A stretch of 64,000 bases of DNA from a virus (IMGVR_UViG_3300042691_037870:32001-96000); one strand, 5' to 3'; positions 6,713-33,311 are shown, numbered from the stretch's first letter. The notes: a model not told the origin generated them from the sequence alone. Program-made: numbers and translations.

Positions 6713-6783
6713 TCTTTATTTGGTTTATCTTTTTATACAAATTATTTATTCATCACCTTATATGATCCTATATAGGTATATAT

Positions 6784-9700
6784 CTATATTCGCTTTATAA
6801 TAGCTGTTACAGAATAACCAAATGGTTTCTTAGTATCAAGTTGTTTATCAATTCTTACTGTAAACTCATCAATATTAATAACTTTACAATCTTTATCAAC
6901 ACGGTATCCAGCATCCGCTTTTTCAATATCGTCAAGTGTAATATCAAATATAGGAATGCCTTCTTCAGAAAGAGCATACAATTTTATTTCACCGATTTCA
7001 TATAACTGTATGATATTCTTATTTAGATAATCCTTTTTAAGATTTTCTATGTCAACAGTTGTTAAACTTTGTAATTCGGTTATCCCTAAAGTAGTTAACC
7101 AATCAAACTCATCGAAGCTAGTTGGTAATTCAATATCATCAAGTAATTTTCTAAGAAGTCTTGCTCTTAAATCCAAGTTAACCGTTAATGTAGGTTTACT
7201 TGTACCTTCTACATCAGTTAATTGAATTTCTTTTTTAGATAATAACTTAACCCCAACTTCTTCAGAAGGAGCTGTAACAGTAAAAGTAGCTTCAGTATCT
7301 AAGAAAGTATCAAGTATATGAGTATTAGGGATATTCATTACTTTAGAACCTAAGAATGACTTAAATTCTTTCATTTCATTAAAACCGTCTATAGGATTCC
7401 AATTTTGTGTATCATAATACTTACGATAGTAATTTTTATCCCATGTACTGTTTAAGACAAATTGTTCTTTAGTATCAACAGATACTTCACCTACAAGAGG
7501 GTAAACACTTTTATATGCGGAACCTCTTGCAATTTTTAGTATCTCTGCATCAGCAACTTTATTTATTCCGTAATTTCTTAAAATTCCTGTTAATGATGAT
7601 TTGTCATTAAAGTGTGTATTTACTAAAAGATAATCTTTTTCAAAATGTTTTGTAAAAGTTTCATCTTCACGAACCCAAAATGAAAGCACATCATTTGCAC
7701 GTGGTTCATAAGACCCACGATGACGATAAATTACTTCGTTTTGATTTGTATCAACTATATTATAACCAATGTTTGCTGCACCTAAATATTCGATAGGTTT
7801 ATCTTCATCATTTACATAAGCAAGAACTCCTGTTTTAATAATTTGATCAGGGTCTATAAATTGTAAGCGGTAGTCAGTTACTGCTACTGTAGTATTATTT
7901 TCAACTTTATAGTATTCAATAGATGAAGGGTGTGCATTATTGTCTACAGGCACGTAATTAACAAGTTCTTTAATTGATGCGTATGTTAATAAGTTTTTAA
8001 TATGTAGATATGCTGATGTACCACCTTTAATGTTATAAGTTTCAAGAGGCTCTGGGTTTATCGTTGATAATGCAACATTCATTGTTGTCATTAAGAACTG
8101 TACAATATTTAAACTTCCTGGAGTTATACTTGAGTAAATTGGGTTATTACTTCCACCAAAAGTAGTCTGTACAGGTAGGTAACTATCATTGTAAATTCTT
8201 GAATTTGTTCTATCTATATGTCTATATTGAGATCCTAATTTTACAACCTCAATAAGTTTAAATAAGGAACCATCTTTTGTAAATGAAGTAGGAACCACAT
8301 TTAACCCACCTGTTACTGTAAACGCATTATCTTTATTTGTGTAATTATCATATGTAGGTACAATTTCATTAATAACCGAAAAGTTATATGAAGGTTTAAT
8401 AGGCTCCCAATTCATTGTAATCTTGCCTCCATTAAATACCGGCTTTAAGGAATTGGTTAAACTATCAATGATATACCCACCAATACGAGTATCACCAAGT
8501 TCAAGATAGCCTCCACCTAAAAAACCTTGTCGAGGTCTAAGTATTGAAAGATCTTCATATGATGTTGTAGTTGGTGCATAAGGCAAGAACTGATTAATGC
8601 TTAAGATATCTTGTGATGCCAAAGTATTTCCGCTGTTAAATAAACCACCTAATGGAACTTGCTTTTGATTAATATTCTTTAATTGATCATTCATTGCATA
8701 AAAGAATAAGTAATCGTTTAATCCTGACTGTACACGATAATCTTGAATATGAATGTTAATAATCATCACAATTGATTTGAACTTATCATTACGATAAACT
8801 TCAATATCAACAGGTTTTTCAGCTAATAAAGGTGTGACAGGAACTATTCTTGCAATAGATGCAAATTTATAATCATTATACTTTTTAGATTCTGATACTT
8901 CTTCTCCAAGTGCATTATTAATATCAATTACTTGTACTTTTGCACCTCTGAATAATGTTTGTGATCTTTTAACGCCATCAGAATATTGCATAAAAGTATA
9001 TCTTTCATCGCGTGATTTAGTTATTAATTCATTTAGATCGTTAATCTCATTAGGATATCCTAATGCAAAGTATTTAGTAAACCAGTCATCAGTATCATCA
9101 CTCGTTAGTAAATCATACCACGTAGAATTTCCTTTTGCAATATCACTAAGTTTTGCAAACATATAAGAACGTGATCCTTCTAAAGATTCTGTAGGATAAT
9201 CTTTAGGAACAGTATCAAGATAAGGGAATTCATTAGTTAATAAAGAAGGTTCAGCAAACTTAACACTTGTGTCAGGTGAAAAGTTAGTTATACCAAAAGC
9301 TTTTGATATGTTAAGGCGATAGTAATTATCTCTTGCATCAGTTCCTTCTTGAACCCACTTATTAATGTAAGGAACCACTTTTGATTTAAGTGCATAATCT
9401 TTATTAAAGTTTTCTCTAAGTCTATCGTATTCTGAACGTAATGACTGTCTTAAGAAAGCATCTACATATAACTCGTCATTAAGTAAACCGCGAATAGCTT
9501 CAGCATCTTCAGGTGAATATAAGTCGCTAATAGCAGAGAATCCCGAAAACGTCTTTAAGTCTTTATCAAAATAATAGTCATTCTTAACAATTTTTACTCT
9601 TGCATTAGTATTTGATAAACTGTTAACTACAATTTTATATGAAAGAGGTTTTGCTTCTGTTACCGCTCCTGAATCGTTAGTAACAGAAATTCTTCTTCTC

Positions 9701-12700
9701 ATGTAATTTCTTAAACCTACACCTTCTGGGAAATATGAAGGCGCATCTTCCCAAGTTCTTGGGTGCTCAAATTCATCGTATACATAAAAAGGATAATATG
9801 TGTTAAGAATAAGTTCTGTAGGATATCCTGAAGATGCACCGTTAAAAGTTATTTCTTCAATCTTATTCCATTCTTTAGTATTAGGATTAAGTCCATAAAT
9901 ATCTAGTACTGCATTTGTGTTAACAGGATTTTTGTCTTCATCAATAAAACTTAATAAGTAATTTTCATCCGCAGGCAATATTAGTTCACCGCCTTGTTGT
10001 AAAGTTTCATTAAAGTAATATCTTAATGCTTCAAGAATAGGCGTATACGAATAATCAGAAAAGTAAAAATCAAAGTCAAATTCTTTGACCGGGAAAATTG
10101 AAAAGATTCCCAATATAGGACGATATATGTTATATGCAACTACTCGTTTATCACCAGTCTGATAAAATTCTTGAGTACTATCATTTAGCTGAATAACACT
10201 ATACTGATTAAGATTTGTAAAATCAACAATGTCATTCATTTCATTAAAGACAGGCTCTTCAAGATATGGAAGTGAGTAAACATATTTACCTTGAACTTCC
10301 CAACCTTTCATTGGTGAGTACTTGCCTTTTTGTGCCTGATACCACTGATCTTGAATCTTTTCAAGATTTAGGATTGATAACTCAGAAGAAGTAATAACTG
10401 TAGTAACTGGAGAAGTAGTAGTTCCTAAAGTTGCTGCATTAGAAATAGTAATTGCGTTTGCTGCATAATCTATATAAGTTATGTATGAATCATTAGGAAT
10501 ACCTTTGCCTGTAACTTTTGCACCTACATAGAGGTTATCTAATAGTACATTAGTGATAACTTTAGATCCTGATATAATATTACCCGTTAATTTAACACTA
10601 CGATCTGCAAAGTATCTTTGTGAATCTACATATCCTATTCTTGCACGATTTCTTTCACGCTGTACTCCACCAATAAATAATTGCTTAATTTCATTAGGCG
10701 TAGTAGAAACTTTAATGATATATTCATAAACACTGTTAATTGGCAAATTACTCATGTTAACAGAAAATGGAATAACTGAATAACTAAATACATCTAAACT
10801 CGGAACAGTAACATAATAGTAGCCGTCTCCTGTAGTTGATGCAGTTATTAAATTAGTAGGATTAACATCCGTTCTAATTTTAATAGCTGACCCTCCAATC
10901 GTTTTTGATATTTCTAAATAATAATATATGTCACCAGCAATTCCAGTGTTATTGATTATTTCTACAGGTAAGTCGTAATTGGTATTGCTTGCTACTTCAA
11001 CATTTACAGATGTGTTAACATCAATGTTTCCTTTTTCAAAAAATCCTAAATTAAATATTAAACTTTCTCCATTTACCATTCTACGAGTAAGCTGAATTGC
11101 GTTACCTTCAAGACCTGGTCTTTTAGCTTTTAAGTAAACTTCTTCACCTAAAGCAACTGCATAACATGGCCCATTTTCAAATGTGTTAATACATTTTGCT
11201 AAAGCAGAAGCAACTTGTGTAGCTGTGCCTTCATTGCTAAATGTTGATATGTAATCATAACCATTGGGATCCGCTATAGGATAATCCCAAGCATCACCGG
11301 CTTGCATTCCTGTACTTTTTGCAATCATTCTCCAGCGAAACTGTTGATACGAAGGCATAAGAATAGGTGTTAAGTTTGCAAGTGTGCCACCCAAGAATGT
11401 AATATTTAGTTCTGTTGAATTAACATCTATTCTATATGATTCATTACCTGTATAAGATGTTAGTGGTTCAAGCTGTAAACTTAAAAGAGTATCAACTGCA
11501 AGATTATTTGATAATGGGTTATAATTATAAGTAATGTTATAAGTAGGACCAGCCGTTGAAATTAATTCATCTACAGAAATGAGTGTAAGTGGAGCAACAT
11601 TCGTTGGATTACCATCGTTAACTATATCAATCGTAAGAATATTAGGATTAATTCCCGTGACTGTAAAATAACTTCCAAATGTAACTTCACTGTTTATTGT
11701 AAGACCAGGAGTTGTTATGTATACTTGCTGACCAATAAAAAAATTATCAATTTCATTAACAAATACACCACTTAATGTACCACCAACAGCAGGCATTGTA
11801 AGTGATGATCCAAGCCTTCTTGTATATTGATCTTTAAAGACTGTAAATGAAACATTTGTTGGTGAAACATTTTGTGTTTTTAAGTAATATGTATGTAAAC
11901 GTGGTCCGTGAACATACGTATTAATTGTAAGTTCAAGTTCTTCTTCATCAGCAAATACGGGGTCAGAAGTAACCTGGGCTAAATGAAGTCTTAATTGTGA
12001 ATATCCTTTATCTAATAACTTTGCATCAAATTGAGATGTTATTTGATTAACACCTGCATAATTACTAATATCTTCTTGTGTATCAAAAAGTTTAAGTTGA
12101 GATACTCGACGATAATCTTCAGTACCCGGATTTCCATAATCAACTTCTTTTAGCTCGGTAATTCTTTTAAACGCATCATTGCGATCTTTAATGTAGAAGA
12201 TTCTTAATGGGTCTTCTACTAAAGATGGTAAAGGAAACTTACCTACTACTTCTCCTTGAAAAGTTGGAACATTCGTATTATTTACAATACTTGTTGGATT
12301 ATGATAATAATGAACAGGTATTTGAATACCTTCAGGATTTGTCTGTACAAATTCTTTTGTGCTATATGGCTGTCCGTCAATCCCTGCTTTAGGTATTGGA
12401 GTTTGATTTGGTATTTTTGCTAAAGAAATTGGATCAATCTCAAAATTTGCTAATTGATTTTCTGTTACATATAATCCAAAGTAACGATTAATAGAATAAG
12501 GTGCTGCCTCGGAATCATCAAATAAGAATTCCAAGTTAACAAGATTTGTACTAATTATACCTTGACGTTCAAACCCACCAGTAATATATTCCTCAAATTC
12601 AATAATAGGTCTATCTTTAGTATAGTAGTCATTTAAAAACTCACCTTTGCCTGTCATTGTACCATCTACATAAGAAATCCCATTCCAGGTTGTTGCAATA

Positions 12701-14322
12701 TCAGTATCAAAACTAACATCAAGAGGTCTTTCTTTGTAACGAGGATCATTTACAATCTTTCTTAAATATGAACCTAATTTAGAAGTTTCACGCATATCAA
12801 AAGTTTTTACAATACGTGCATCTTTAAAGAAAGAATCATAAATTTGTGTATTATCCGCTGACATATAACTTTCAACAGATAATGGGTGATCTAATCTAAA
12901 TATGATAAAATAGTCAGGTATTACTTTTCTTAACCAAAGAGGCGCAAAGAAAGAAAATCCTTCATCATAATATTTACTTTTAAGTTGTTCTACTCCGTAG
13001 TTATAAAAGTTATCATATTGTTCGGCAAGAGTTCTTTTAGTATTTTCATATTGATTGTCTGTTTGGTATAAATCAAATATGATTGATGTTGGGGTTTGCC
13101 CATTTTTAAAGAACTTATACAAATCTCTTGCATATGTAGATAGTGGAGATATTGCATACTTTTTATATGCTGAATCAGCTAACTCATTATTTGCATCAAT
13201 AGAATTTAACCAAAGATTTCCTGTTGAATCCAGAGTTATTTTAACATTCCCTGAAAGTTTAGGATTAGTTTTTAAAACACCGTAAGAAGAACGATCATCA
13301 TAAACTTTTATTTCTGACTTATAATCATTTTGCCAGGTAGTTCTTGTAGGTCTAATGCTAGTTTCTTTATATCCCATAAAGTGAACTTCTTGATAATCAT
13401 AAGAAGTTGATAAAGTAGCAGCTGATTTTAAACCGTATGACGTAGTATTATTTGATAAAGTATCTAATGGGGGTGTTAAAGCTCCTACCACAGCTGCGGG
13501 TGGAGCTGAAATGATAATCATATTAAATTTTAAATGACTATCATCAACCCCATCATAATCTATTCTTAATGTTGCTGAAGCATTTGGCACGTTATTATCT
13601 TTAGCTATACGAACTGCTCCACCTAAACCAGAACTTACTTTTCTACCTACAAACCCGGTGCCTTCAAGAAAGTTTGTTGAAAAATTTTCAACTGTGCCAT
13701 CAAATAAGTTCTTTAAAGATACCACATTTTGTGAAGATATCCAAGGAGTAGTATATGAAATGTATTCATATTCAGATATTGATTTTCCATTTAAAGACCA
13801 TCTTTCATTTGCGTTCTCATCCCAGAAACCTACATGCATAGTGCCAGTAACACCTACGCCCATAGAAGGTTCAATTATAATTGAGGAACCTGTAACTCCT
13901 GATAAGTCTGTTATATATGAACCAGGCTGGTTAGGAATGTTTATAACACCTGTACCACCAGTATTGCCTACAAGTATAGGCCCTAATTCACCAAGACCAG
14001 TTGGTCCTACATTTGCATAATCATGTGAATTTTTAACAAACATTCCAGGCTGAACATTTGAAAAACTTAATTCATTTGTATTGGGATATGTTGATGTAGT
14101 TAATTCAACGCCTGACACTTGTGTCCCTGTTAAACTGTTTGTAAATTTTGCATCTGCAGTAGCATAGGCATCAAATGTTCTTGCATGTGGAAACACAAGA
14201 ACATATAATGCATTATTCCCAAGAACGGAATCGTTTCTACCAATAGTTATAAAAGTAGTTGACTTTCCTTGTAAAACTTGTTCTCGCGAAAAATCAATAC
14301 TATAGAAATTAGGTCCTGTCAT
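6784..14322 (-). CDS. Very large putative virion structural protein (2512 aa)
   Basis: Long ORF in the structural block, TAATG-coupled to the upstream gene; beta-rich inserts incl. LYVGAKVTGKGIPNDSYIT, a repeat also seen in 26523..33311. Confidence 0.6.
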   Translation of the reverse strand: MTGPNFYSIDFSREQVLQGKSTTFITIGRNDSVLGNNALYVLVFPHARTFDAYATADAKFTNSLTGTQVSGVELTTSTYPNTNELSFSNVQPGMFVKNSHDYANVGPTGLGELGPILVGNTGGTGVINIPNQPGSYITDLSGVTGSSIIIEPSMGVGVTGTMHVGFWDENANERWSLNGKSISEYEYISYTTPWISSQNVVSLKNLFDGTVENFSTNFLEGTGFVGRKVSSGLGGAVRIAKDNNVPNASATLRIDYDGVDDSHLKFNMIIISAPPAAVVGALTPPLDTLSNNTTSYGLKSAATLSTSYDYQEVHFMGYKETSIRPTRTTWQNDYKSEIKVYDDRSSYGVLKTNPKLSGNVKITLDSTGNLWLNSIDANNELADSAYKKYAISPLSTYARDLYKFFKNGQTPTSIIFDLYQTDNQYENTKRTLAEQYDNFYNYGVEQLKSKYYDEGFSFFAPLWLRKVIPDYFIIFRLDHPLSVESYMSADNTQIYDSFFKDARIVKTFDMRETSKLGSYLRKIVNDPRYKERPLDVSFDTDIATTWNGISYVDGTMTGKGEFLNDYYTKDRPIIEFEEYITGGFERQGIISTNLVNLEFLFDDSEAAPYSINRYFGLYVTENQLANFEIDPISLAKIPNQTPIPKAGIDGQPYSTKEFVQTNPEGIQIPVHYYHNPTSIVNNTNVPTFQGEVVGKFPLPSLVEDPLRIFYIKDRNDAFKRITELKEVDYGNPGTEDYRRVSQLKLFDTQEDISNYAGVNQITSQFDAKLLDKGYSQLRLHLAQVTSDPVFADEEELELTINTYVHGPRLHTYYLKTQNVSPTNVSFTVFKDQYTRRLGSSLTMPAVGGTLSGVFVNEIDNFFIGQQVYITTPGLTINSEVTFGSYFTVTGINPNILTIDIVNDGNPTNVAPLTLISVDELISTAGPTYNITYNYNPLSNNLAVDTLLSLQLEPLTSYTGNESYRIDVNSTELNITFLGGTLANLTPILMPSYQQFRWRMIAKSTGMQAGDAWDYPIADPNGYDYISTFSNEGTATQVASALAKCINTFENGPCYAVALGEEVYLKAKRPGLEGNAIQLTRRMVNGESLIFNLGFFEKGNIDVNTSVNVEVASNTNYDLPVEIINNTGIAGDIYYYLEISKTIGGSAIKIRTDVNPTNLITASTTGDGYYYVTVPSLDVFSYSVIPFSVNMSNLPINSVYEYIIKVSTTPNEIKQLFIGGVQRERNRARIGYVDSQRYFADRSVKLTGNIISGSKVITNVLLDNLYVGAKVTGKGIPNDSYITYIDYAANAITISNAATLGTTTSPVTTVITSSELSILNLEKIQDQWYQAQKGKYSPMKGWEVQGKYVYSLPYLEEPVFNEMNDIVDFTNLNQYSVIQLNDSTQEFYQTGDKRVVAYNIYRPILGIFSIFPVKEFDFDFYFSDYSYTPILEALRYYFNETLQQGGELILPADENYLLSFIDEDKNPVNTNAVLDIYGLNPNTKEWNKIEEITFNGASSGYPTELILNTYYPFYVYDEFEHPRTWEDAPSYFPEGVGLRNYMRRRISVTNDSGAVTEAKPLSYKIVVNSLSNTNARVKIVKNDYYFDKDLKTFSGFSAISDLYSPEDAEAIRGLLNDELYVDAFLRQSLRSEYDRLRENFNKDYALKSKVVPYINKWVQEGTDARDNYYRLNISKAFGITNFSPDTSVKFAEPSLLTNEFPYLDTVPKDYPTESLEGSRSYMFAKLSDIAKGNSTWYDLLTSDDTDDWFTKYFALGYPNEINDLNELITKSRDERYTFMQYSDGVKRSQTLFRGAKVQVIDINNALGEEVSESKKYNDYKFASIARIVPVTPLLAEKPVDIEVYRNDKFKSIVMIINIHIQDYRVQSGLNDYLFFYAMNDQLKNINQKQVPLGGLFNSGNTLASQDILSINQFLPYAPTTTSYEDLSILRPRQGFLGGGYLELGDTRIGGYIIDSLTNSLKPVFNGGKITMNWEPIKPSYNFSVINEIVPTYDNYTNKDNAFTVTGGLNVVPTSFTKDGSLFKLIEVVKLGSQYRHIDRTNSRIYNDSYLPVQTTFGGSNNPIYSSITPGSLNIVQFLMTTMNVALSTINPEPLETYNIKGGTSAYLHIKNLLTYASIKELVNYVPVDNNAHPSSIEYYKVENNTTVAVTDYRLQFIDPDQIIKTGVLAYVNDEDKPIEYLGAANIGYNIVDTNQNEVIYRHRGSYEPRANDVLSFWVREDETFTKHFEKDYLLVNTHFNDKSSLTGILRNYGINKVADAEILKIARGSAYKSVYPLVGEVSVDTKEQFVLNSTWDKNYYRKYYDTQNWNPIDGFNEMKEFKSFLGSKVMNIPNTHILDTFLDTEATFTVTAPSEEVGVKLLSKKEIQLTDVEGTSKPTLTVNLDLRARLLRKLLDDIELPTSFDEFDWLTTLGITELQSLTTVDIENLKKDYLNKNIIQLYEIGEIKLYALSEEGIPIFDITLDDIEKADAGYRVDKDCKVINIDEFTVRIDKQLDTKKPFGYSVTAIIKRI

Positions 14323-20947: not shown

Positions 20948-21793
20948 TTATTTTTCTAAGTACTCCTTTGGAACATATTCTTCCCAAATAGGATCGTACC
21001 AAAAACGCCTACCAGAATTGTCAACTACAGAAGATTTAATTCCGTAACATTTCATCCATTCTTTAAAAGATTTTGCATCTGTCTTATTAGGATTTTCCCA
21101 GTCTTTTAATTGACCACCACCTAATTCATATGCATCAGAAGTACAAGAATAACATAGACTAATCAATTCATCAACTTTATTAGATGGGATTTCATTTGCT
21201 GGAGTAAAAGGATTAATATCAAGACGCCAAAGAATTTCAGCCCTTAAATAATTACCAATACCATTAAAGTATCTTTGGTCCATTAAGAGTTCATTAATTC
21301 TTGACTTAAAATGTTTATGTGTATACCATTTAGTTTTTAAGAATTCTTGAAATTCATTGTATTCTGTTAATGGGCAAGGGCCTCTACCTGGTGTCCAATC
21401 TTCACCCCATTTCCATTTAGCAAATCTTCTTACATCATGCAAAACAAGATAGTTACCACGAGTGGTAATAAATCTTAAATGAGCGTGTTTCAGTACTTCT
21501 TGTAAATGTTCACTGTCTTTTCTTAAATAAACCCAGTTTCCACTCATACCCATTGAGAGAAATAAATTTTTTGTAACTGCTCCGTTTAAATCACCTCCAA
21601 TTAATTCCATGTGGAGACGCATTTCTTTACCTCGGGTTTTTGCATACATCGTAAAGACTCCACCTTCAAAAGCATTAAGATCTGTTTTTACTTTTGATAC
21701 TGGTGATTTTTCTATTCTTTCAATATAAGGATCTTGTTGAACTATATGATTCACAAAATCTCCCATTATTTTTACTTCTGCTAATTCTGGCAT
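20948..21793 (-). CDS. nei: Fpg/Nei-family DNA glycosylase/AP lyase, NEIL1-like (no zinc finger)
   Basis: Catalytic N-terminus MPELAEV, RGKEM, MGMSG, DVRRF, H2TH motif LLMDQRYFNGIGNYLRAEILW; C-terminus lacks a 4-Cys zinc finger. Confidence 0.93.
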   Translation of the reverse strand: MPELAEVKIMGDFVNHIVQQDPYIERIEKSPVSKVKTDLNAFEGGVFTMYAKTRGKEMRLHMELIGGDLNGAVTKNLFLSMGMSGNWVYLRKDSEHLQEVLKHAHLRFITTRGNYLVLHDVRRFAKWKWGEDWTPGRGPCPLTEYNEFQEFLKTKWYTHKHFKSRINELLMDQRYFNGIGNYLRAEILWRLDINPFTPANEIPSNKVDELISLCYSCTSDAYELGGGQLKDWENPNKTDAKSFKEWMKCYGIKSSVVDNSGRRFWYDPIWEEYVPKEYLEK

Positions 21794-22104
21794 ATTTTTT
21801 GTCTTAAGATATAAACTTCGTCTAACTTATAAAAATTTCTATTTTCTGATACAACAGAAAATTCAGCTTTTTCGGCTGAATATGTGCATCCTTTTGTAGC
21901 ATTATCAACGTCTTTCTTTGGAGTAGAAATTTTATTCTTACTTATTGTTTTTGATAAACGTTTTTCAGTTTCTTCATCAAAGATAATTTTATATGTTACA
22001 GATATGTCAGTAATTTTACTTTTGATATGACCTCCATATTTTGACTTATAGATAAATTCTTTACCTATAAGTTCCTCTTTCATTGTTTGAATAACCTTTT
22101 CCAT
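21781..22104 (-). CDS. Hypothetical protein (107 aa)
   Basis: ORF tightly packed between the exonuclease and glycosylase genes. Confidence 0.6.
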   Translation of the reverse strand: MEKVIQTMKEELIGKEFIYKSKYGGHIKSKITDISVTYKIIFDEETEKRLSKTISKNKISTPKKDVDNATKGCTYSAEKAEFSVVSENRNFYKLDEVYILRQKICQN

Positions 22105-22105
22105 A

Positions 22106-22810
22106 TTAGATTAATTGTGTGCCAAGACTTGGCTTATAATAAATGTGATGTACTTTTTCTATCATGCGAATCATACCAATAACATCTTTTTCACAGTACT
22201 TAATGATTCCGCTTTCATTGTGGTTTGCCCAAAATTCTTCATGTACCTGAGATCCATTCATTTCATCTTTGGGCGATGGTAATCCTAAAGAATACATTGC
22301 TTCTTCAAATGTAACATCGAGATTTGAAAAAGATTTCCACCATTCTTTTAAATCAACAATATTAACTTCCCAAGGCTTCTTACCCCAAGTATTTAAACAT
22401 TCAGGTACTTGTAAACCGTATATTAAGAATTTTCGATAAACCCAAGGAATATCAAAATTCTTAATATTCCAACCGCAAGGGATTAATCCGCTTGCTGTTG
22501 CTTTATGAAAAAGATTAGCAACTTTCTTTACAAGATCAGCTTCATTCAATTCATATATAGTTGAAACTTGTAGTTCTCCATTTTTATAAATCCCATAAGA
22601 TAAGCAAGCGATTCTTCCATATTCTGGGAATAATGAGACTTGTCTTAAATATGCTTCTGAAGGATCTCCAAGATTAAGTCTTTTGCATTTGCCTTCAAAT
22701 ATTTTTGCACCATCAGGTTCTTGAGATTGAAATTCTTCAAATGTAGGATATTGACCGCATGTTTCAATATCAAAAAATAGTAGCTTTGAGAGGTAACTTT
22801 GAGTAAACAT
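22106..22810 (-). CDS. Stand-alone PolB-type 3'-5' exonuclease (DnaQ/DEDD fold)
   Basis: ExoI FFDIET, ExoII GWNIKNFDIP, ExoIII YCEKDV motifs. Confidence 0.88.
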   Translation of the reverse strand: MFTQSYLSKLLFFDIETCGQYPTFEEFQSQEPDGAKIFEGKCKRLNLGDPSEAYLRQVSLFPEYGRIACLSYGIYKNGELQVSTIYELNEADLVKKVANLFHKATASGLIPCGWNIKNFDIPWVYRKFLIYGLQVPECLNTWGKKPWEVNIVDLKEWWKSFSNLDVTFEEAMYSLGLPSPKDEMNGSQVHEEFWANHNESGIIKYCEKDVIGMIRMIEKVHHIYYKPSLGTQLI

Positions 22811-22933: not shown

Positions 22934-23179
22934 ATGGAAAACATCAAACAACCAAACTTAAACTTAGACTCATTACCTTGGATTAGTTGTTCATGTGGAG
23001 GGATGATCTTTGATTCAGCTGTCATGGTCAAGAAAGTTTCAGCTTTACTCAGTCCTACTGGAAGAGAAGAAATGATACCTGCTGATATGATTATCTGCAG
23101 ATCTTGTGGTAAGATACCTGAGTTCTATGCAAATAAAGTAAAAGGAATACCTGAAGAGTTAATTGCAAAAAATTCATAA
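22934..23179 (+). CDS. Small zinc-ribbon protein
   Basis: CSCGG...CRSCG Cys pairs; ATG in A-rich context; TAATG-coupled to the SET gene. Confidence 0.75.
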   Translation: MENIKQPNLNLDSLPWISCSCGGMIFDSAVMVKKVSALLSPTGREEMIPADMIICRSCGKIPEFYANKVKGIPEELIAKNS

Positions 23180-23601
23180 TGAATCCTTTTATATCAGATT
23201 TTATTGATGTAAGAGATGTACCTGATATGGGATTTGGAGTTTTTACTACTCAAGATATTGATAAAGATTGTTTAATAGAAGTATCTCCTATTTTTACATA
23301 CCCACGACAAGTAATAGATACTGCTTATTACATTTTAATGGCTGAAGGGGCTCAACCTGGAGAATTTAAGTTAGATCAATATTCTCTTTTACTACCTGGT
23401 AATTATGATAAATGCGCTATCATGCTTGGATACTTAAGCATCTATAATCATAGTGATAATCCAAATGCTGAATTAACTTTTATATCAGAAAGAAAGGTTG
23501 CTGTAAAGACTACGCAACCTATTCCTGCTGATTCACAAATTTTTATAAGTTATGGCTCTGGATGGTTTGAATCCAAAAAGTCATATATTCAAAAGATTTA
23601 A
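23179..23601 (+). CDS. SET-domain protein (putative lysine methyltransferase)
   Basis: GFGVFTTQDI (motif I), SIYNHSDNPNA (NHS motif), IPADSQIFISYG (pseudoknot Tyr). Confidence 0.88.
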   Translation: MNPFISDFIDVRDVPDMGFGVFTTQDIDKDCLIEVSPIFTYPRQVIDTAYYILMAEGAQPGEFKLDQYSLLLPGNYDKCAIMLGYLSIYNHSDNPNAELTFISERKVAVKTTQPIPADSQIFISYGSGWFESKKSYIQKI

Positions 23602-25184: not shown

Positions 25185-26539
25185 TCTGAATATGTTTTTT
25201 GTTCGCAATCAAATACTGAAGATATTGAAAAGTAATATGTGCCTTGATTATATAATAGTCCAAAATATGAAGCTGGGATGTAAAACTTAATACCTTCTTT
25301 ATATTTATCATATGAAAACTTAATCTTAGATATATTTGAACTACCTGGAGTGTTCCATACTCCGGTGTGTACCTTAATGGTTTTTCCAATTAGCGCTTCT
25401 TGAGCCTGTGACAATGTATATGTTATATTATTAAGTAACTTAATAGTTGTAGATATCTTTTCATCTAATAATGACGCTGTAATAACATACCCATCACCAA
25501 ATTCATTACCAAATTCAATATACATAGAAGGATTTGGTAAATTAAAAGCATTAGGAGAAATGCTATTATTATTTTTCTTTAAAATACATGTTACTTGATT
25601 AGTTGTTACGTTTGTAACATCAACTATTACATAATCGTCAATAGTTAAACTTCCACAATTACTAGGATATAATAATACGATTGGTGGAAACGTTGCTCCT
25701 TCATTACATTGCACATTAATTGGGGACCCTCCAAAAAATGGTACATTTAATGAATATGAATATCCTGGATCTACTATCTTAACAGATTTTAAACTACCGC
25801 CTTCAAGTATTGGTTCAAGAACTCCATTAAAATTAGGATTGTTTCCCGTTACATCATAAATATCATTAGTAACAGTATCTTCAGATCTTAGACGAAATCT
25901 ATAAGATACTGCTAAATTAGTAGGGTCAGACCAAGAAAATAAAACTTTATCAGTTGTTTGATTAACACTAATATCTAAATTAACAGGCGCTTGTAAATTG
26001 TTATCTGTAAAAATTCTACGATTTGTACAAAAGAATCCTGGATATAACCCTGTCCCACCGTCATCAAGAGATGACATATCACCTTCTGTAATTGCTATTC
26101 TTATCTTATATACTAATTCTTCAGTTGGCCACACATTTAGTCCTGGATATACATCTATAACATTTACCACATATCCTTTTATATAATTAAAATAACTGGT
26201 AAATATGTTAGCATCAGACACAATTGTAAAAGGCTCACCATTCTTAATAAGATTTGATCCAAAGAACCCTTCTGGAGTGTCAAGAGGACCTTCTTGCTCT
26301 AATGTATATCCTACTTCAAGTACATAATAATAGTTTGTACCTGTAGTTCCTTTTTCTTGCGTGATTGAATAAATTAAAGACTTATAAGCGTATTCATAAC
26401 CACTTTGATTAATTTCAGAAGTGTAAATATATCCCTGATTAATTGAATCAGCAGGTGTATTACCATCTTCTATTGGATTAACCACAAGATTAGTTTCAAG
26501 GTCTCGCTGTCTACTTGATTTTTTACTCTGCGGAATCAT
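25154..26539 (-). CDS. Putative structural protein with FN3-like segment (461 aa)
   Basis: APVNLDISVN..VLFSWSDP..YRFRLR and terminal YSEWSE are FN3-like; VKIVDPGYSYS repeat also seen in the upstream baseplate protein. Confidence 0.55.
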   Translation of the reverse strand: MIPQSKKSSRQRDLETNLVVNPIEDGNTPADSINQGYIYTSEINQSGYEYAYKSLIYSITQEKGTTGTNYYYVLEVGYTLEQEGPLDTPEGFFGSNLIKNGEPFTIVSDANIFTSYFNYIKGYVVNVIDVYPGLNVWPTEELVYKIRIAITEGDMSSLDDGGTGLYPGFFCTNRRIFTDNNLQAPVNLDISVNQTTDKVLFSWSDPTNLAVSYRFRLRSEDTVTNDIYDVTGNNPNFNGVLEPILEGGSLKSVKIVDPGYSYSLNVPFFGGSPINVQCNEGATFPPIVLLYPSNCGSLTIDDYVIVDVTNVTTNQVTCILKKNNNSISPNAFNLPNPSMYIEFGNEFGDGYVITASLLDEKISTTIKLLNNITYTLSQAQEALIGKTIKVHTGVWNTPGSSNISKIKFSYDKYKEGIKFYIPASYFGLLYNQGTYYFSISSVFDCEQKTYSEWSEETKFII

Positions 26540-29500
26540 ATATAGTTAAAAATGATTTTTTCAGTTGTGTTTTCTTATTACCATTTGTGTCAGTGATAGT
26601 TAATTCTACATCAAAATTACCAGGATATTCAAATGTCCATAATAGTTGTTCATCAATTACTTCAGCTAAAGTAGTTTCACCATCTATAAGTTTCCAATAA
26701 TATTGAGTCTTACCTACGATATCACTTGCATTAGCACTAAGTAAGACAGAAGTACCTGCAGGTAACTTTCCATTATATTTACCTACTCGCGTTTCTTCCC
26801 ATGTATAAACACCACCTATTGCACGGCTATAAGGTAATCTTTCAGATTGTGCTTTTGCTTCTAAGTAATTACTAAATGTAGGACTGTTGCTATAAGAATA
26901 ATTATATGAAAGATCATCAGAAGGATACCATCCTGGAGTTCCGTATGGTGAAGTTCCTTCATATAAATAAGTTTGTGCATATCTATAATTAGTTAAGAAA
27001 TCCTGTAACCCACGTTTAAAAGCACCTACTCGGTTTTCTCCGTAACCAAACCATTTATAGTAATTACCTACAGGGTATGTATGCGCAGTTGTAGTACTTA
27101 TATTAGTAGAACTAATTTGAGGTGGTAAAAATTGAACACCGTTTGTACCTACAAGATACCCTAAGTTATCAGTACTTGGGTTTTTAGCAGAAGCAATAAT
27201 TTGTACGTCCGCGTTTGTAATTGTGCTTACTAACCAAGGAATCGTTATAAACGTATTTGCGGCTGTTATCCACTCAACATTAAAACTACCATTTAATTTG
27301 GTTCCTGAAAGTGGTGTGTCAAGAACAATCTCTCTAATTTTACCGTCTCTAACAAGAAGTTGTAAAACTTTTGCAGGATTTGATGGGTAAGACGGTAGAA
27401 AATCTCCAGAAAGATATTCACCAACTCGTAAGTCACCTGATTGTAAACCTTTAACGTTTTTAATAACATACTTTCCTGAAGTTGTGTCACCTACAAATGT
27501 TGCTTTCTTAGGAATATTTTTATCTACATAAACAACGTTATATCCAGTAAACATTGGATCAACAGTAGATCCAGGTACAACAGATGTAACGGTTGTTGCT
27601 GGTTCAACAAAGTAACCATAGTAAGCATCACCAGGAGATACCAATGCAGAAGTTTTTGTAATGATTGCATCGGGTAATGCATAAGTATTTAAAGCAGATG
27701 CACTTATTTGATCTTGAGTAGCATAAGAAACTAAATAATCATCTGAATAATCATTGTCAACATATAAACCTGAAATGGAACCTCCATAAATAGCATAGTT
27801 AAATTTACTAACACCAGGATTATTTGTTGCATTTAATTCATATAGAGCCTGTGAATATTTTTGTGCTACTGACATACCTCCAATTATACCTTGAAAGTTA
27901 AATGTAGGATATTCATTAAATTTGATACCGCCATTTGAATCAACATTATTAATTACATATCCACACCATAAACTATCAGTAAAATCAAGAGTGTCCCAAG
28001 TATTACCACAAAATTCGGACCATACCATTTCTTTGTAGTTTCTCCAAGTTTGTACACGTGTACCTAAATGCTCTTCAGCATAATCTTGATCAAATGTTTG
28101 CTGACATGCTGTAAAGAAAGTATCACTACGATAAAGTTCCGCGCTTAAATCATCAACAGTAACAAGTGTTCCAATACCGCCATTCCATACTCCAGTATTT
28201 GTGATTTTCATAGAGTATGAATTTGAAACAATCCCATGATCGTAAAACCAATTTGTATGATCTGTTACATAACTTGGACCAAAATTAGTACTTGATAGGA
28301 AAGAACCATTAGCAGGAAACTTATTATAATTTGCATATATTGTTTCATCAGAACCGTTTGTGGCAAAGTATCTTTCTTGTGTTGTAAATTCATCATATTC
28401 ATATTCAAGAAAAATACTCGGTGAAGCTAATGTAGACCAATATGATGAAAGATTAGAATTGAGTTCTGATAATTTACCACCACTAATTCCTAATACATCA
28501 ATTACATAAGCATTACCAGAAAAAATGTTATAAATATCTCCAACATTACTTGTGCTTTCATATGCATGTACAGTTCTAAATATTTGCTTATATATAAGTT
28601 CGGATCCGTCGTATACATATAGTTTAATTCTTGTAAATCCTGGGCGAATTTCATTTAAAGGATTAATCAATATAGATGATGGGTCAAGAATTAACTGACC
28701 TTTATAATCTGATACTTGTTGGCTTTGTTCAAGCACTTCTTTAAATACCCAAGAAGTTGTAATTGGACCCCATACTAAATTACCATTTACATTTACATAA
28801 TCTCTTATTTTGTAAATGCGACCATAAGCACCCGGTTTTTGTAGTACTGCATTTGTAGAACCATTAAAGATATCAAACCCATCAGCATTTCTTGCAGAAA
28901 CAATATTTCTTGCAGAAACAGGAGTATTTCCTTCTTTTGTAATTACTACATTGTTGCCTATTTTTAAACCTGTAGGATTAGTTTCTTCATTATAAATTTG
29001 GTTTCCTGCAACAACGAATGTTCCACCCACTTCTCTTAACACTTCCCATGTGGTAGGACTTTGTGTAAAAGCAAGAGGTGGTACTTGAGATATTTCAATC
29101 TTGGTAATTCCCGGCGATGAATAGTCAGCACTAATAACTTGATAGTTATAAACAACTCCGTCTCTTCTTATATAGATTACATCATTAGGATCATATATAG
29201 GGTCAAGTTTTGGCAAATCATACTGTCCTGCTACCGTAATGGTAGGGTTTATCGTAGACACAGGAACAGTAGTATTATCCGTGTAAGATATAATAGAACC
29301 TTCATAAACATCTTCAGAACTTATCTGTAAGATTTCCATATCTAAACAAGTTGGGAACGTAGGACTATTAATATAAGATAAATCAGAAATACTTAAACTA
29401 TCCCAGTTAATATCATAATCATCCCATCTTGTATCATTAAATGTTATATTAACCCATCTACCTACTGCATTATCCCATGTATATTCAACAGGATTTGGTT

Positions 29501-32500
29501 TATCATTTGGAGTACTTAGCATAAAGCTATTGTCAGAAGGTGGAGTTGGTATTTGTTCAAATTCTTTCCAAGTATCTTTACACTCTTCAACAGTTTTTGC
29601 AATATAAGCAAAGTCAGCTTCAGGCATATACACATCAACAGCTTTTACTTTTATTGCATTTGACTTGGTATTATTTGTATCATAAACATTTAACTCTAAT
29701 GTATACTTACCTGTATATGGTAAAGTTATGGTATGATTAATTAAAGAATCAATTGTATTAATACCTGAACGATAATTGTAAACTGTTCCTGGTACTGTAG
29801 GTTCATCAAGATATGCAAGCCATTCCATTTGGTAAAAATCGCCTCTGCCAATTTCAGCCCAAGTGTATAAACTACTTGTATGTCCGCCATTAGGAGAGAT
29901 TGTAGGTTCTGATGTATAGCCCACACCACCTGCTGTCACAGAAACTCCTTGATGAATATAAATCTTATCTCCTATAGATAAAGATGTTGCGATTGAACTA
30001 CCATCATAACTCAATAAGTACAAGTCATTACCAATAATACTATCAATAATTGTTCCTTCAGGTATATTAGTATCTGATTTGATAATTTTACCAGCTGTGA
30101 TAAAATTTAAACCACCTGCAGGTAATGCTGGAGTAACAGTAATAATATCGTTAAAAGCACCTGGTGATACTGTTGAAGATAAATTTTGTACTTCATATTC
30201 AACAATATTAAGTTTACCACTTCTTAAACTATTACTCACAACAGTTGCACCGAATCCTCCACCTCCATTAACGGTAAATGTAGGAGCAAAGTTGTAATCA
30301 GAACCTTGACTTATAATTTCAACAGCAATAAGATCTCCAGTACCTGCAGGTAATGAATAAACCCAAGCTTTAAGTGTTGCATCATTACTACCTGTAAAAG
30401 TATTCCAAGGATACACTAACTCATCCCAAGTAACATCAAATGTAGTAGACACATTTACAAGTGCACCTACTGGAATATTAGGTGCATCACTATAAGGTTT
30501 AACTGTGTCGGAATCATTAAAGTAACTTATAGGTGCTGATTCATATTCTTTAACAGTAAGAGTTGCTGTTGGTGTTAAGCCTGTAATACTATCCCATAAG
30601 AATTGAATCGTAGGATATGTTGCATATCTTTTACCTAAATCAAAGAGGGTAACTTCTTGTAATTCAAAAGGTATTTCAGTAGCTGCTATTTCAAAACCTA
30701 TTGCATCGACAGGAATTTCATATTGATTACCTACAGGTCTAACAACTGTTCTTTGAGAAAACGTAGTTGGTAAACTCGTATAATTGCTTCCTTGTTGAGG
30801 ACCTGCATTAATCTGTATATCAGTGACAGACCCATTAACATCTACAGCGGTTACTTCAATACGAAACGGTATTTCATAGGAACCACCACTTAATGTTATA
30901 ATATCACCTGCTTGATAATCAGCACCAGCAGGAGTAATTGAATATGAAGCGATTGCCATTGCTTTAACTCGACAACGACCTCTTGCTTGCTGAACAGCTG
31001 ATCCTGGAAAAGTAACTTGTGGGATTTCTCCATAAAAGTTACCACCCGCCCCTGTTACTATTACATCATTAATATCATAATAAGTGGAATAAGGTAAAAG
31101 TGAATTGTCAACTTCAGGTGTAAGTAATCCTCCTAAACGGTCATACGGTCTAAGATCAATAATTTGAGATTTTTTATCATACGTAAAATCAAGTTTCTTA
31201 CCAGAGTTTACAATTAATCTGTCATTTCGATCACTCCAAGAATTAATTGCGTATCTTTCATAATAAACACCTTCACCAGTAATATCAACAATTCTTGTAT
31301 TAAGTGGTAAGAATTTTTCTTTTAAGTAGGCCTTTAAAGCAAATAGCTTAATAAGAACTTCTTCATTGGTGTAGGCAAATGCATCTTCAGTAATTGGGAT
31401 ACCGAATTCATCAGTATCTCCAGAATCACGATTAATGTCATAAAATAAACCAAAAAGATTTGTTTTCTTATAGTGTTTACTTGGTAAAAGATTAATCTGT
31501 TCTGGACTTACCTTTTTATTCTTAAGTTGTAAAGTTATAGGAACTTGACGATATCTATTAAAATAAGTATCATCTGCATTTACATTTAACCAATATTCTT
31601 TAATACGAATATCATAATAACCAAACCAATTAATGATATTTACAAGACCTTTATACGAACCTACATACGGCCATATTTGGTCTCCTTGTAATAGCATTTC
31701 TTTTCTTTTCTGGTTTAACAGAATATAATCAGGATTATCTTCATTAATATCAGAATCTCTTAATATTAATTCTTGGTCAATTGTGATGTCTCTACCAAAG
31801 TTTTCTAAAAGTAATCCTAATCTTTCGTCTTCAGCAATTACTTCACATTCAATAGGGATTTCTAATAATATTGGACTGTAATTGCTAAAAGTAGTATCAG
31901 AGATTTTTAGATACCCTACGTAAGAGCCTTCCACATCAGCTTGAATCCCATAGTTAATTTGTAGTAACCTTTTTTCTAAATCTTCAAACACAATACGTAT
32001 CCATTCATCATTTTGGGCTGTAAATGAATCAGGCATTGTGGCAAGACTGGCATCAGTTAACTCAAAACTAATCTCTTTTGACTTTTGAATCGTAGGGTAA
32101 TCTGTGCCATATTCTACTTCATATAAAAACCATTCTGGGTCAGATGATCTATCAAGAGATGCTGTAAATTGTGGAATAACACTATAATATGTAAAATATG
32201 ATGCTGATGAATTTAAAGTACTACTAAAAGATAATGTATAAGTGCTTAATGCAGTAATTGTATGAATTCCTGCAAGAGGCCCTGCATTAATGTTAATTTT
32301 AGATCCTACTTTTAAATTATGACTAACATAAAAAGTAAAACTAATATTTGTGCCTTCAGCAACATCGTTATTTAATGTAACTTCGCCTATAGTAGGTTCA
32401 ATATTTTTTATAACAGTTCCATCTGGGACACCGTTACCAAAAACTGTCATACCTACTATAAGATTACCTGTTACTCCTAAATTAAGTTCATTGATCTTAT

Positions 32501-33311
32501 TTAGAGATTTGCCATGTACATTACCTGTAGTTGTGTATGTGGCGATTGCGACGGTTGCTGATGTGCCATTTGCCGCATAAGAATCGATATAAAAAGGACC
32601 GTATTCTTCAACACGAGGGTGTGTATAACCTATTCTATACTTATCTATTGGAGTATTTGTTTGCGTAGAAATAGCAGGTTTATTAATTGTAACTGTTTGA
32701 TTAAGCAAATCGACCTGTGTAATATAAGTATCGTCATTTAAGCTAATACCTGCTATTCTTACACCTACTAAACTTGTGTCAATAAGCGTAAAAGTTGGGG
32801 TAATAATGTTTGAATCAATAACAGTATTCCAAGTTGAAGTACCAATATATTCCCATACTTTTTCAATTAAAAATAAGCTATCTGACTGAATTAAGCCAGC
32901 AGAAACAGGTTCAAGAAAGTAAGCTGAAAACCCTGAAATAGTAGGATACTTAAAGTAAAATTTATTTACCAAAGAAGAAGAAACTATATCAACAGACTGT
33001 ATGCTTCCACCTGCTGTAAAAGTTATATATGAAGAATCAATCTTAAAAGTTGTTAAAGTAGTAGCTGTTAAATCAGTATTTAATAATGACATATTTTGTA
33101 CTTGAATATAAGTATCAGCGCTATATCCAAAACCTCCATCAATAATAGATAAATGAACTATCTTGCCTTCATAATTTGAATAAACTTTTAAGACAGCATT
33201 TTTACCTTCACCTCTGGGATCAATTGCTATTGCAGTTGTCTCATCAATAGTTGAAGGATTAATGTTATTTCCTTTCTTATTAAAAAACTTAAATTGATTA
33301 TTTATTAACAT
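26523..33311 (-). CDS. Giant baseplate wedge protein (gp7/P2 gpI-like core) with inserted repeats and C-terminal PKD domain (2262 aa)
   Basis: IWPYVGSYKGLVNIINWFGYYDIRIKEYW wedge-type motif; just downstream of the gp6-like gene; repeated (I/V)xxxGxxY units; terminal WTFEYPGNFDVELTITDTNG (PKD). Confidence 0.65.
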   Translation of the reverse strand: MLINNQFKFFNKKGNNINPSTIDETTAIAIDPRGEGKNAVLKVYSNYEGKIVHLSIIDGGFGYSADTYIQVQNMSLLNTDLTATTLTTFKIDSSYITFTAGGSIQSVDIVSSSLVNKFYFKYPTISGFSAYFLEPVSAGLIQSDSLFLIEKVWEYIGTSTWNTVIDSNIITPTFTLIDTSLVGVRIAGISLNDDTYITQVDLLNQTVTINKPAISTQTNTPIDKYRIGYTHPRVEEYGPFYIDSYAANGTSATVAIATYTTTGNVHGKSLNKINELNLGVTGNLIVGMTVFGNGVPDGTVIKNIEPTIGEVTLNNDVAEGTNISFTFYVSHNLKVGSKININAGPLAGIHTITALSTYTLSFSSTLNSSASYFTYYSVIPQFTASLDRSSDPEWFLYEVEYGTDYPTIQKSKEISFELTDASLATMPDSFTAQNDEWIRIVFEDLEKRLLQINYGIQADVEGSYVGYLKISDTTFSNYSPILLEIPIECEVIAEDERLGLLLENFGRDITIDQELILRDSDINEDNPDYILLNQKRKEMLLQGDQIWPYVGSYKGLVNIINWFGYYDIRIKEYWLNVNADDTYFNRYRQVPITLQLKNKKVSPEQINLLPSKHYKKTNLFGLFYDINRDSGDTDEFGIPITEDAFAYTNEEVLIKLFALKAYLKEKFLPLNTRIVDITGEGVYYERYAINSWSDRNDRLIVNSGKKLDFTYDKKSQIIDLRPYDRLGGLLTPEVDNSLLPYSTYYDINDVIVTGAGGNFYGEIPQVTFPGSAVQQARGRCRVKAMAIASYSITPAGADYQAGDIITLSGGSYEIPFRIEVTAVDVNGSVTDIQINAGPQQGSNYTSLPTTFSQRTVVRPVGNQYEIPVDAIGFEIAATEIPFELQEVTLFDLGKRYATYPTIQFLWDSITGLTPTATLTVKEYESAPISYFNDSDTVKPYSDAPNIPVGALVNVSTTFDVTWDELVYPWNTFTGSNDATLKAWVYSLPAGTGDLIAVEIISQGSDYNFAPTFTVNGGGGFGATVVSNSLRSGKLNIVEYEVQNLSSTVSPGAFNDIITVTPALPAGGLNFITAGKIIKSDTNIPEGTIIDSIIGNDLYLLSYDGSSIATSLSIGDKIYIHQGVSVTAGGVGYTSEPTISPNGGHTSSLYTWAEIGRGDFYQMEWLAYLDEPTVPGTVYNYRSGINTIDSLINHTITLPYTGKYTLELNVYDTNNTKSNAIKVKAVDVYMPEADFAYIAKTVEECKDTWKEFEQIPTPPSDNSFMLSTPNDKPNPVEYTWDNAVGRWVNITFNDTRWDDYDINWDSLSISDLSYINSPTFPTCLDMEILQISSEDVYEGSIISYTDNTTVPVSTINPTITVAGQYDLPKLDPIYDPNDVIYIRRDGVVYNYQVISADYSSPGITKIEISQVPPLAFTQSPTTWEVLREVGGTFVVAGNQIYNEETNPTGLKIGNNVVITKEGNTPVSARNIVSARNADGFDIFNGSTNAVLQKPGAYGRIYKIRDYVNVNGNLVWGPITTSWVFKEVLEQSQQVSDYKGQLILDPSSILINPLNEIRPGFTRIKLYVYDGSELIYKQIFRTVHAYESTSNVGDIYNIFSGNAYVIDVLGISGGKLSELNSNLSSYWSTLASPSIFLEYEYDEFTTQERYFATNGSDETIYANYNKFPANGSFLSSTNFGPSYVTDHTNWFYDHGIVSNSYSMKITNTGVWNGGIGTLVTVDDLSAELYRSDTFFTACQQTFDQDYAEEHLGTRVQTWRNYKEMVWSEFCGNTWDTLDFTDSLWCGYVINNVDSNGGIKFNEYPTFNFQGIIGGMSVAQKYSQALYELNATNNPGVSKFNYAIYGGSISGLYVDNDYSDDYLVSYATQDQISASALNTYALPDAIITKTSALVSPGDAYYGYFVEPATTVTSVVPGSTVDPMFTGYNVVYVDKNIPKKATFVGDTTSGKYVIKNVKGLQSGDLRVGEYLSGDFLPSYPSNPAKVLQLLVRDGKIREIVLDTPLSGTKLNGSFNVEWITAANTFITIPWLVSTITNADVQIIASAKNPSTDNLGYLVGTNGVQFLPPQISSTNISTTTAHTYPVGNYYKWFGYGENRVGAFKRGLQDFLTNYRYAQTYLYEGTSPYGTPGWYPSDDLSYNYSYSNSPTFSNYLEAKAQSERLPYSRAIGGVYTWEETRVGKYNGKLPAGTSVLLSANASDIVGKTQYYWKLIDGETTLAEVIDEQLLWTFEYPGNFDVELTITDTNGNKKTQLKKSFLTIYDSAE

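Follow-up and report, generated by a model that had tools for sequence, protein, structure and literature searches.

In the literature that we draw on, NEIL1 forms a subfamily of the Fpg/Nei DNA glycosylases that is confined to eukaryotes, chiefly metazoans, with mimivirus as the sole viral case (PMC3188539, PMC6264785). Its spread among eukaryotes is described as patchy, taking in some metazoans and some protists (PMC6264785). The subfamily has been termed "MeNeil1," and zincless fingers are reported both for MeNeil1 and for the mimivirus enzymes, of which MvNei1 (L315; 3A42/3A46/3VK7) is described as a viral NEIL1 orthologue with such a finger (PMC3188539). Bacterial Fpg/MutM and Nei (1EE8, 1K82, 1K3W), and with them gp292 of Bacillus phage G, belong to the same superfamily and share its two-domain fold, N-terminal Pro-Glu, and H2TH domain. 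Here we describe a NEIL1-type glycosylase gene from a phage. It lies in a 64,000-nucleotide stretch of viral DNA (hereafter the window), which spans bases 32001–96000 of the 126,447-base IMG/VR virus record IMGVR_UViG_3300042691_037870. It belongs to a mostly phage-borne family, also found in Poribacteria, in which eukaryotic NEIL1 has its nearest kin, a placement that is well supported. Annotation pipelines already name relatives of the protein "endonuclease VIII-like 1"; in a literature search that mostly did not extend to subscription journals, we found no description of phage NEIL1-type enzymes.

Does the protein resemble NEIL1 in particular or the superfamily as a whole? A preliminary description of this DNA had favored NEIL1 over bacterial Fpg/Nei, comparing a series of sequence blocks with human NEIL1 strings. 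All of the blocks are in the translation—RGKEMRL at residues 54–60, HAHLRF at 103–108, DVRRFAKW...GEDWTPGRGPCPLTEYNEF at 120–148, LLMDQRYFNGIGNYLRAEILWRLDINPF at 169–196, LGG at 224–226, and FKEWMKCYG..S.VDNSGRRFWY at 243–266—and an HMMER alignment to PDB 6lwn_A found the human strings to be correct and colinear with them. In that search, which covered 177,635 distinct PDB sequences, residues 1–267 aligned with NEIL1 1–282 at an expect value (E) of 7.5e-43, and the top 15 rows were human NEIL1 only (E 7.5e-43 to 6.8e-41). The first row other than NEIL1 was Thermus MutM (1.7e-9), which is also the best bacterial Fpg, followed by weaker matches to Escherichia coli Nei (4.5e-5), mimivirus MvNei1 (3a42, 9.7e-5) and MvNei2 (4mb7, 2.3e-4), and NEIL2 (8e-3). 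A gap of 33 orders of magnitude separates NEIL1 from the best bacterial Fpg; thus, the likeness is specific to NEIL1 and goes beyond what the superfamily shares. By BLASTP, a primate NEIL1 (Colobus, P0455) is 36% identical to the phage protein (E 2e-52). MvNei1, although likewise a virus-encoded Fpg/Nei member with a zincless finger, aligns at E ~1e-4 and only over the H2TH stretch 159–222, and its carrier infects eukaryotes; the giant-virus Fpg models in BFVD are 15–19% identical. Among Pfam families, Fapy_DNA_glyco (44.8 bits) and H2TH (PF06831; 44.7 bits against a cut-off of 34.7) score above threshold.

The fold points the same way. An AlphaFold2 model built from a 60-sequence alignment has a mean predicted local distance difference test (pLDDT) score of 96.1 and a predicted template-modeling score (pTM) of 0.91. 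When it was compared with PDB structures by Foldseek, human NEIL1 chains filled ranks 1–50 of the matches listed, the best being 5itx_B (E 4.9e-26, template-modeling scores 0.81/0.86, 36% identity). The whole catalytic domain is colinear with that of eukaryotic NEIL1 (human 1TDH, 5ITX, 6LWx, 8FTJ) and has the same fold. The PDB search, Foldseek, and phylogeny agree on NEIL1 rather than bacterial Fpg/Nei, as had been proposed, and neither the best matches nor the tree position fell within ordinary bacterial Fpg/Nei. By sequence, fold, and phylogeny alike, the protein is nearer to NEIL1 than to the other Fpg/Nei subfamilies compared.

Which residues does the phage protein retain? It has several features of the NEIL1 subfamily: a Met-Pro-Glu start, an equivalent of Lys54, an H2TH domain, a zincless finger with an equivalent of Arg277, and the void-filling triad Met81/Arg118/Phe120, matched here by M83/R122/F124 (92–100% conserved). 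BLASTP alignment to P0455 pairs nine phage residues with NEIL1 residues (P2 with P2, E3 with E3, E6 with E6, K56 with K54, M83 with M81, R122 with R118, F124 with F120, N181 with N176, and R262 with R277), and each of the nine is 92–100% conserved both in 57 phage-like rows and in 25 eukaryotic rows of our alignment. P2 and E3 are 100% conserved in these rows; their NEIL1 partners are the N-terminal nucleophile and the catalytic acid. In human NEIL1, the mapped residues as a set serve as nucleophile, acid, lesion-strand contacts, void-filling triad, and finger arginine. In the H2TH domain, N181, Y182, and R184 are 94–100% conserved, and in the finger, R262 (96%) and W265 (96–100%) are conserved in both groups. 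The preliminary description was right that there is no zinc finger: residues 240–281 contain one Cys and no His, so this C-terminal finger is incapable of binding zinc, whereas the bacterial Nei and Fpg outgroups and the archaeal Nei outgroups terminate in CxxC...CxxC. The structure prediction that it had called for yields a hairpin with strands 254–257 and 263–266 that carries R262, within the pLDDT 96 model. Separately, a Nei-like protein in a Caldilineaceae metagenome-assembled genome (MAG; L021:5001-5876) ends without CxxC...CxxC, in contrast to the remaining Nei outgroups, and sits on a long tree branch; it possibly represents a further and independent zincless form.

Table 1. Glycosylase gene, its main sequence features, and the two genes upstream of it (window coordinates)
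Feature	Coordinates	Strand	Remarks
NEIL1-type (Fpg/Nei superfamily) DNA glycosylase/AP lyase open reading frame (putative activity)	20948..21793	-	Intact, 281 aa, ATG start, Met-Pro-Glu N-terminus
Pro2 and Glu3 codons	21785..21790	-	Aligned with P2/E3 of primate NEIL1
Lys56 codon	21626..21628	-	Aligned with NEIL1 Lys54; 100% conserved, phage-like and eukaryotic
H2TH DNA-binding domain, residues 155–229, core FNGIGNYLRAEIL	21107..21331	-	Pfam PF06831, E 1.3e-11
Lesion-recognition-loop region, residues 224–235, phage motif LGGGQLKDWENP	21089..21124	-	Aligned to NEIL1 240–250 loop
Zincless finger, residues 242–266	20996..21070	-	Beta-hairpin 254–257/263–266, Arg262 at tip, aligned with NEIL1 Arg277
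107-aa open reading frame between exonuclease and glycosylase	21781..22104	-	13-nt overlap with glycosylase start
PolB-exonuclease-like 3'-5' exonuclease, 234 aa, upstream neighbor	22106..22810	-	phrog_25228, E 1e-30; PF10108, E 1.4e-10

How large is this family, and who carries it? When 5.8 billion proteins were searched by means of a word index, 1,734 relatives emerged at E<=1e-3. Among them, the top 120 are 46–100% identical to the phage protein, all metagenomic, and all but seven are 267–308 residues long; the label "endonuclease VIII-like 1" was assigned to several of them by the Joint Genome Institute (JGI). HMMER, run exhaustively on the representatives of 1.84 billion clusters (50% identity), gave 2,138 matches at E<=1e-3, of which 364 reach <=1e-10 and 99 reach <=1e-30, with short phage-like forms ranked first and long eukaryote-like forms appearing from ~1e-37. 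Judged from these sequences, the family is large and is evidently under constraint. In the ESM Atlas, the labels of the individual neighbor clusters are 84–93% viral, mainly Uroviricota, and in IMG/VR, a search with one peptide pattern matched 440 stretches on viral contigs of many sizes. Among isolated phages we found nothing close, in a set from which near-identical records may be absent: in a tblastn search, 24 of 50,697 records matched, all at <31% identity, and megablast of 15 kb of the window against isolated phage records gave no match. BFVD returned six matches at 15–22% identity, to phage G gp292 and giant-virus Fpg only.

Cellular genomes add a small bacterial contingent. Among 185,579 prokaryote species genomes, searched with one pattern, at least seven loci match at E 5e-59 to 1e-42 (35–44% identity). 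Four of the seven are in Poribacteria MAGs (L013, L015, L016, L017) and in a cellular context, with sulfatases, an RlmL-like methyltransferase, an L,D-transpeptidase (YkuD), and a SAM hydroxide adenosyltransferase as neighbors. The genes at these four loci are of two paralogue types, both of which occur in one MAG, and retain the phage-type loop (GGSLHxWxNP). A Saprospirales locus, by comparison, looks phage-like: its reading frames are small and co-directional, and it has a 5'-3' exonuclease as well as the 3'-5' exonuclease that also neighbors the gene in the window. On the eukaryotic side, profile searches recovered named NEIL1 proteins from cnidarians, a sponge, Trichoplax, molluscs, a brachiopod, echinoderms, hemichordates, tardigrades, crustaceans, and vertebrates, along with sequences of the amoebozoan Planoprotostelium and of EukProt transcriptomes. 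The preliminary statement that jumbo phages carry a close relative of animal NEIL1 thus needs rewording at three points, although the kinship with NEIL1 stands. "Close" amounts to ~36% identity only; carriage by jumbo phages applies to the present lineage, but the family is also found on viral contigs of other sizes and in Poribacteria; and the partner clade includes animals but is wider, as Planoprotostelium and the EukProt sequences illustrate.

Where does the family fall relative to eukaryotic NEIL1? We built a FastTree phylogeny of 132 rows (the 129 that passed a length and motif filter out of 151 representatives plus the query, together with three Fpg outgroups) and a quick IQ-TREE phylogeny under LG+C20 with posterior mean site frequencies (PMSF) of 92 rows (the query, 49 phage-like, 7 MAG, 25 eukaryotic, and 10 Fpg/Nei outgroup rows); neither tree included NEIL3, plant and fungal Fpg, or MvNei1. 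The split between NEIL1-like proteins—phage, bacterial, and eukaryotic—and the Fpg/Nei outgroups has a support of 99 in both trees. Eukaryotes form one clade: all 25 rows group together in IQ-TREE with a support of 99 in the Shimodaira–Hasegawa-like approximate likelihood-ratio test (SH-aLRT), and FastTree gives 97, with the long row P0234 just outside. The query is excluded from this clade (SH-aLRT 99) and so does not take the position of a strict orthologue. The backbone among the phages collapses into a polytomy: of the 89 inner branches in the IQ-TREE phylogeny, 41 have a support below 80. In the best tree of 54 of the 92 rows, eukaryotes lie seven short nodes deep within the phage-like set; constraining the phage-like rows to be monophyletic cost 6.1 log-likelihood units and gave a p-value of 0.413 in the approximately unbiased (AU) test, run on fast searches (-fast) under LG+F+G4, so that a sister relation survives.

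What would such an enzyme do for a phage? We consider it probable, at about 75%, that the gene product is an active enzyme of the NEIL1 type, tail-less and bifunctional (glycosylase and apurinic/apyrimidinic [AP] lyase), which repairs oxidized bases in phage DNA. The homology, the fold, the retained residues, the size of the family, and the gene context computed here are its basis; activity and substrate range are what we infer from them, and the chemistry would follow, residue by residue, that of human NEIL1. Once the initiator Met had been removed, Pro2 would attack C1' of the flipped-out damaged base with the help of Glu3. Lys56, Asn181 of the H2TH domain, and Arg262 of the zincless finger would hold the lesion strand, while Met83, Arg122, and Phe124 would occupy the void in the helix. 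Cleavage of the backbone by beta,delta-elimination would come next. The likeliest role would be to clear oxidized bases—ring-saturated or fragmented pyrimidines, hydantoins, and formamidopyrimidines (Fapy)—from the phage's own DNA, presumably around replication and in a host living in oxygenated, sunlit freshwater.

Several observations weigh against this assignment. The Pfam family Neil1-DNA_bind (PF09292) scores 22.8 bits, just below its 25-bit cut-off; it is present in the precomputed annotation of many close relatives. The protein stops 15 residues past the hairpin, and the ~100-residue C-terminal tail of NEIL1 is missing. Compared with the eukaryotic GGK-GYDP, the phage loop (GGGQLKDWxNP) has four additional residues, and it lacks equivalents of K/R242 and Y244, as G227 falls in the column of NEIL1 K242 and L229 in that of Y244. 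One flank of the gene in the window lineage consists of very large, apparently structural genes, not replication genes. No RNA run containing the stretch was among the matches listed. Finally, no polynucleotide kinase (PNK) 3'-phosphatase, ATP ligase, HhH-GPD (MBD4-type) glycosylase, PolA, or PolB was found in the 126-kb fragment, a lack of downstream repair genes that weighs little because the record is only ~49% complete.

A loop unlike that of NEIL1 may mean a different substrate range. One could therefore suppose that fold and chemistry are those of NEIL1 but have been retargeted, with the loop suited to a phage-specific substrate—decay products of modified phage-DNA bases, for example, or lesions or bases in host DNA—rather than to general repair of oxidized bases. 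Besides the four-residue indel relative to the eukaryotic loop, the strong conservation of the phage motif speaks for this idea: GGGxLKDWxNP is shared by phage-like and Poribacteria rows, with G226 at 91%, W232 at 80%, N234 at 85%, and P235 at 87%. A DNA methyltransferase is also encoded in the same record. Yet no partner gene of the HhH-GPD/MBD4 type was found in the 126-kb fragment, the generic residues that handle the lesion strand are all retained, our analysis identified no base-modification pathway, and the chromosomal copies in Poribacteria share the loop, which makes a phage-specific substrate unlikely there. On balance, we regard retargeting, although the main rival, as unlikely, and a tail-less enzyme of general oxidized-base repair remains our preferred reading.

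Two further explanations were weighed. One is that the gene is an ordinary host Fpg/Nei that resembles NEIL1 by chance or convergence. In its favor, phage Fpg genes do exist (phage G gp292, SP-10), and the generic Fpg and Nei models of NCBIfam do match the protein: TIGR00577 at E 1.3e-22 and NF007763 at 7.7e-14. Their scores, however, are far under the equivalog cut-offs (80.4 bits against 203.3 for Fpg and 51.7 against 252 for Nei), and the protein lacks the Cys4 zinc finger of bacterial Fpg/Nei, to which it is 21–31% identical and from which it is divided by the SH-aLRT 99 branch. Prokaryote matches, moreover, are not graded: among those listed, they drop from the 1e-42 of the seven loci straight to 2e-12, a zinc-finger Nei. 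Together with the lead of NEIL1 in the PDB search, these results refute a host Fpg/Nei origin, to which we leave hardly any probability. Contamination of the viral record by eukaryotic DNA, through an error of assembly or binning, would account for the fact that the nearest characterized relatives are eukaryotic, but the sequence itself is at home where it lies. The guanine-plus-cytosine fraction around the gene is 0.327 against 0.326 for the genome; the gene is tightly packed, overlapping the reading frame upstream, among genes for a baseplate wedge protein, PhoH, and an exonuclease; and all seven related viral contigs have the same gene order at 57–70% protein identity. With the conserved viral order and a position outside the eukaryotic clade, contamination is refuted as well, and we give it even less credence than a host origin.

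Can the phage family tell us where NEIL1 came from? The preliminary description had suggested that it bears on the origin of the subfamily. The nearest-kin placement sustains this in part: the phage backbone is a polytomy, and both sister and nested topologies survive the AU test. We tentatively propose, at somewhat less than even odds, that an early eukaryote acquired NEIL1, in humans a major enzyme for the repair of oxidized bases, from the phage and bacterial pool and that the tail and a longer helical segment were added later. Several observations point to acquisition: maximum-likelihood trees nest the single eukaryotic clade several short nodes inside the phage diversity, the diversity of the phage lineages far exceeds the length of the eukaryotic stem, NEIL1 is patchily distributed among eukaryotes, and two eukaryote-like rows share a short segment with the phage forms. 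In the short phage-like forms, little sequence follows the finger; eukaryote-like relatives are 350–630 residues long and have basic tails. The segment 196–217 comprises 19–24 residues in phage-like rows and mostly 29–45 in eukaryotes; P0211 and P0234, the only two eukaryote-like rows with a short, phage-like segment (23–24 residues), are deep and belong to the basal part of the eukaryotic clade, where the branching is unresolved. Transfer in the opposite direction, or a plain sister relation, would also be compatible with the data (AU p 0.41).

What kind of virus carries the gene? CheckV puts the completeness of the record at 49%, from which a genome of probably some 250 kb follows. Genes are almost all on one strand, and no tRNA was found in the window. 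Close to the glycosylase gene are, among others, those for a baseplate wedge protein, for PhoH, for a SET-domain protein, and for the PolB-exonuclease-like 3'-5' exonuclease. A neighboring 1,181-residue protein matches phrog_29329 and, by tblastn, proteins of uncultured megaphages (33%) and of the Tenacibaculum phages PTm1, PTm5, and pT24, Sphingomonas phage PAU, and Chryseobacterium and Flavobacterium phages (24–29%). Because of these relatives, the carrier probably belongs to a jumbo-phage lineage with a host among the Bacteroidota. Near-identical DNA was seen in freshwater and plankton metagenomes from several studies. Three giant reading frames of 2,008, 2,512, and 2,262 residues lie on the minus strand (window 686–14322 and 26523–33311), and their homologues are kept in related contigs. 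The SET-domain protein (140 residues, window 23179–23601, PF00856 E 1.2e-12) is encoded by the sole sizeable plus-strand gene here, which is at the same position in 7/7 close viral loci (34–42% identity). Elsewhere in the record, the DNA methyltransferase (phrog_116) is at G000 108400–109614, and a 542-residue protein, encoded outside the window on the minus strand (G000:C1:121980-123608; L095:5980-7608), matches phrog_850, "RNA-binding protein" (E 6.7e-46).

Is the glycosylase tied to particular neighbors? In the seven close viral loci, the conserved order runs from a giant protein through a 461-residue protein, a 201-residue protein, PhoH, the SET-domain protein (on the opposite strand), and the exonuclease to the glycosylase, and continues with proteins of 281, 717, 1,181, and 2,512 residues. 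The exonuclease abuts the glycosylase directly upstream in all seven, and the intervening 107-residue reading frame is present only in the window; that frame had no Pfam or PHROG match and no BLASTP homologue among the reading frames of 80 wider loci (the best 80 of the 440 IMG/VR stretches, on which all wider-locus comparisons rest; one of them, L123, has no glycosylase reading frame called). At L111:4687-5001, a 104-residue frame with a lipoprotein-like signal sits at the same exonuclease–glycosylase junction, where the genes of most relatives abut. Across the wider loci, the exonuclease is within two genes of the glycosylase in 20 of 80. These comprise all 18 of the window lineage (>=54% identity) together with L137 and L159; in the other 60, it is not found at this distance. 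A MAG locus, L012, has the pair in reversed order. We had considered functional coupling, or a complex, of exonuclease and glycosylase and set it aside as lineage synteny, since 18 of the 20 linked loci come from the window lineage. In other lineages, frequent neighbors are a DinG/XPD-like helicase (21 loci), a family-B DNA polymerase (15), a sigma factor (13), and the ribonucleotide reductase small chain (12); the helicase, polymerase, and reductase indicate that the family generally resides in replication and nucleotide modules. One locus (L104:5001-7008) has a full-length glycosylase (5001–5849), then a 277-residue frame, and then a 102-residue frame that repeats the 3' third of the glycosylase gene (hidden Markov model E 4.4e-40). 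The start of the 277-residue frame resembles a GIY-YIG homing endonuclease, and the arrangement looks like the scar of a homing-endonuclease insertion.

What, then, separates the phage protein from the NEIL1 of eukaryotes? The N-terminal Pro-Glu, the Lys, the Met/Arg/Phe triad, the H2TH domain, and the finger Arg are common to both; unlike NEIL1, the phage protein has no disordered tail, a shorter 196–217 segment, a loop of its own, a position outside the eukaryotic clade, and a tailed phage as its carrier. The lesion loop of human NEIL1 carries the RNA-edited K242R site, and this very loop is swapped here for a differently conserved motif. For structure–function studies of how lesions are recognized, the family supplies hundreds of compact, tail-less natural variants. 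It is in tailed phages, plus a few bacteria, that the closest relatives of NEIL1 occur, and these are far more diverse than NEIL1 itself; where a human repair enzyme came from is thus a question that phylogeny can test. For the phages themselves, the finding would add excision repair of oxidized bases to the functions that large aquatic phages carry on their own genomes.

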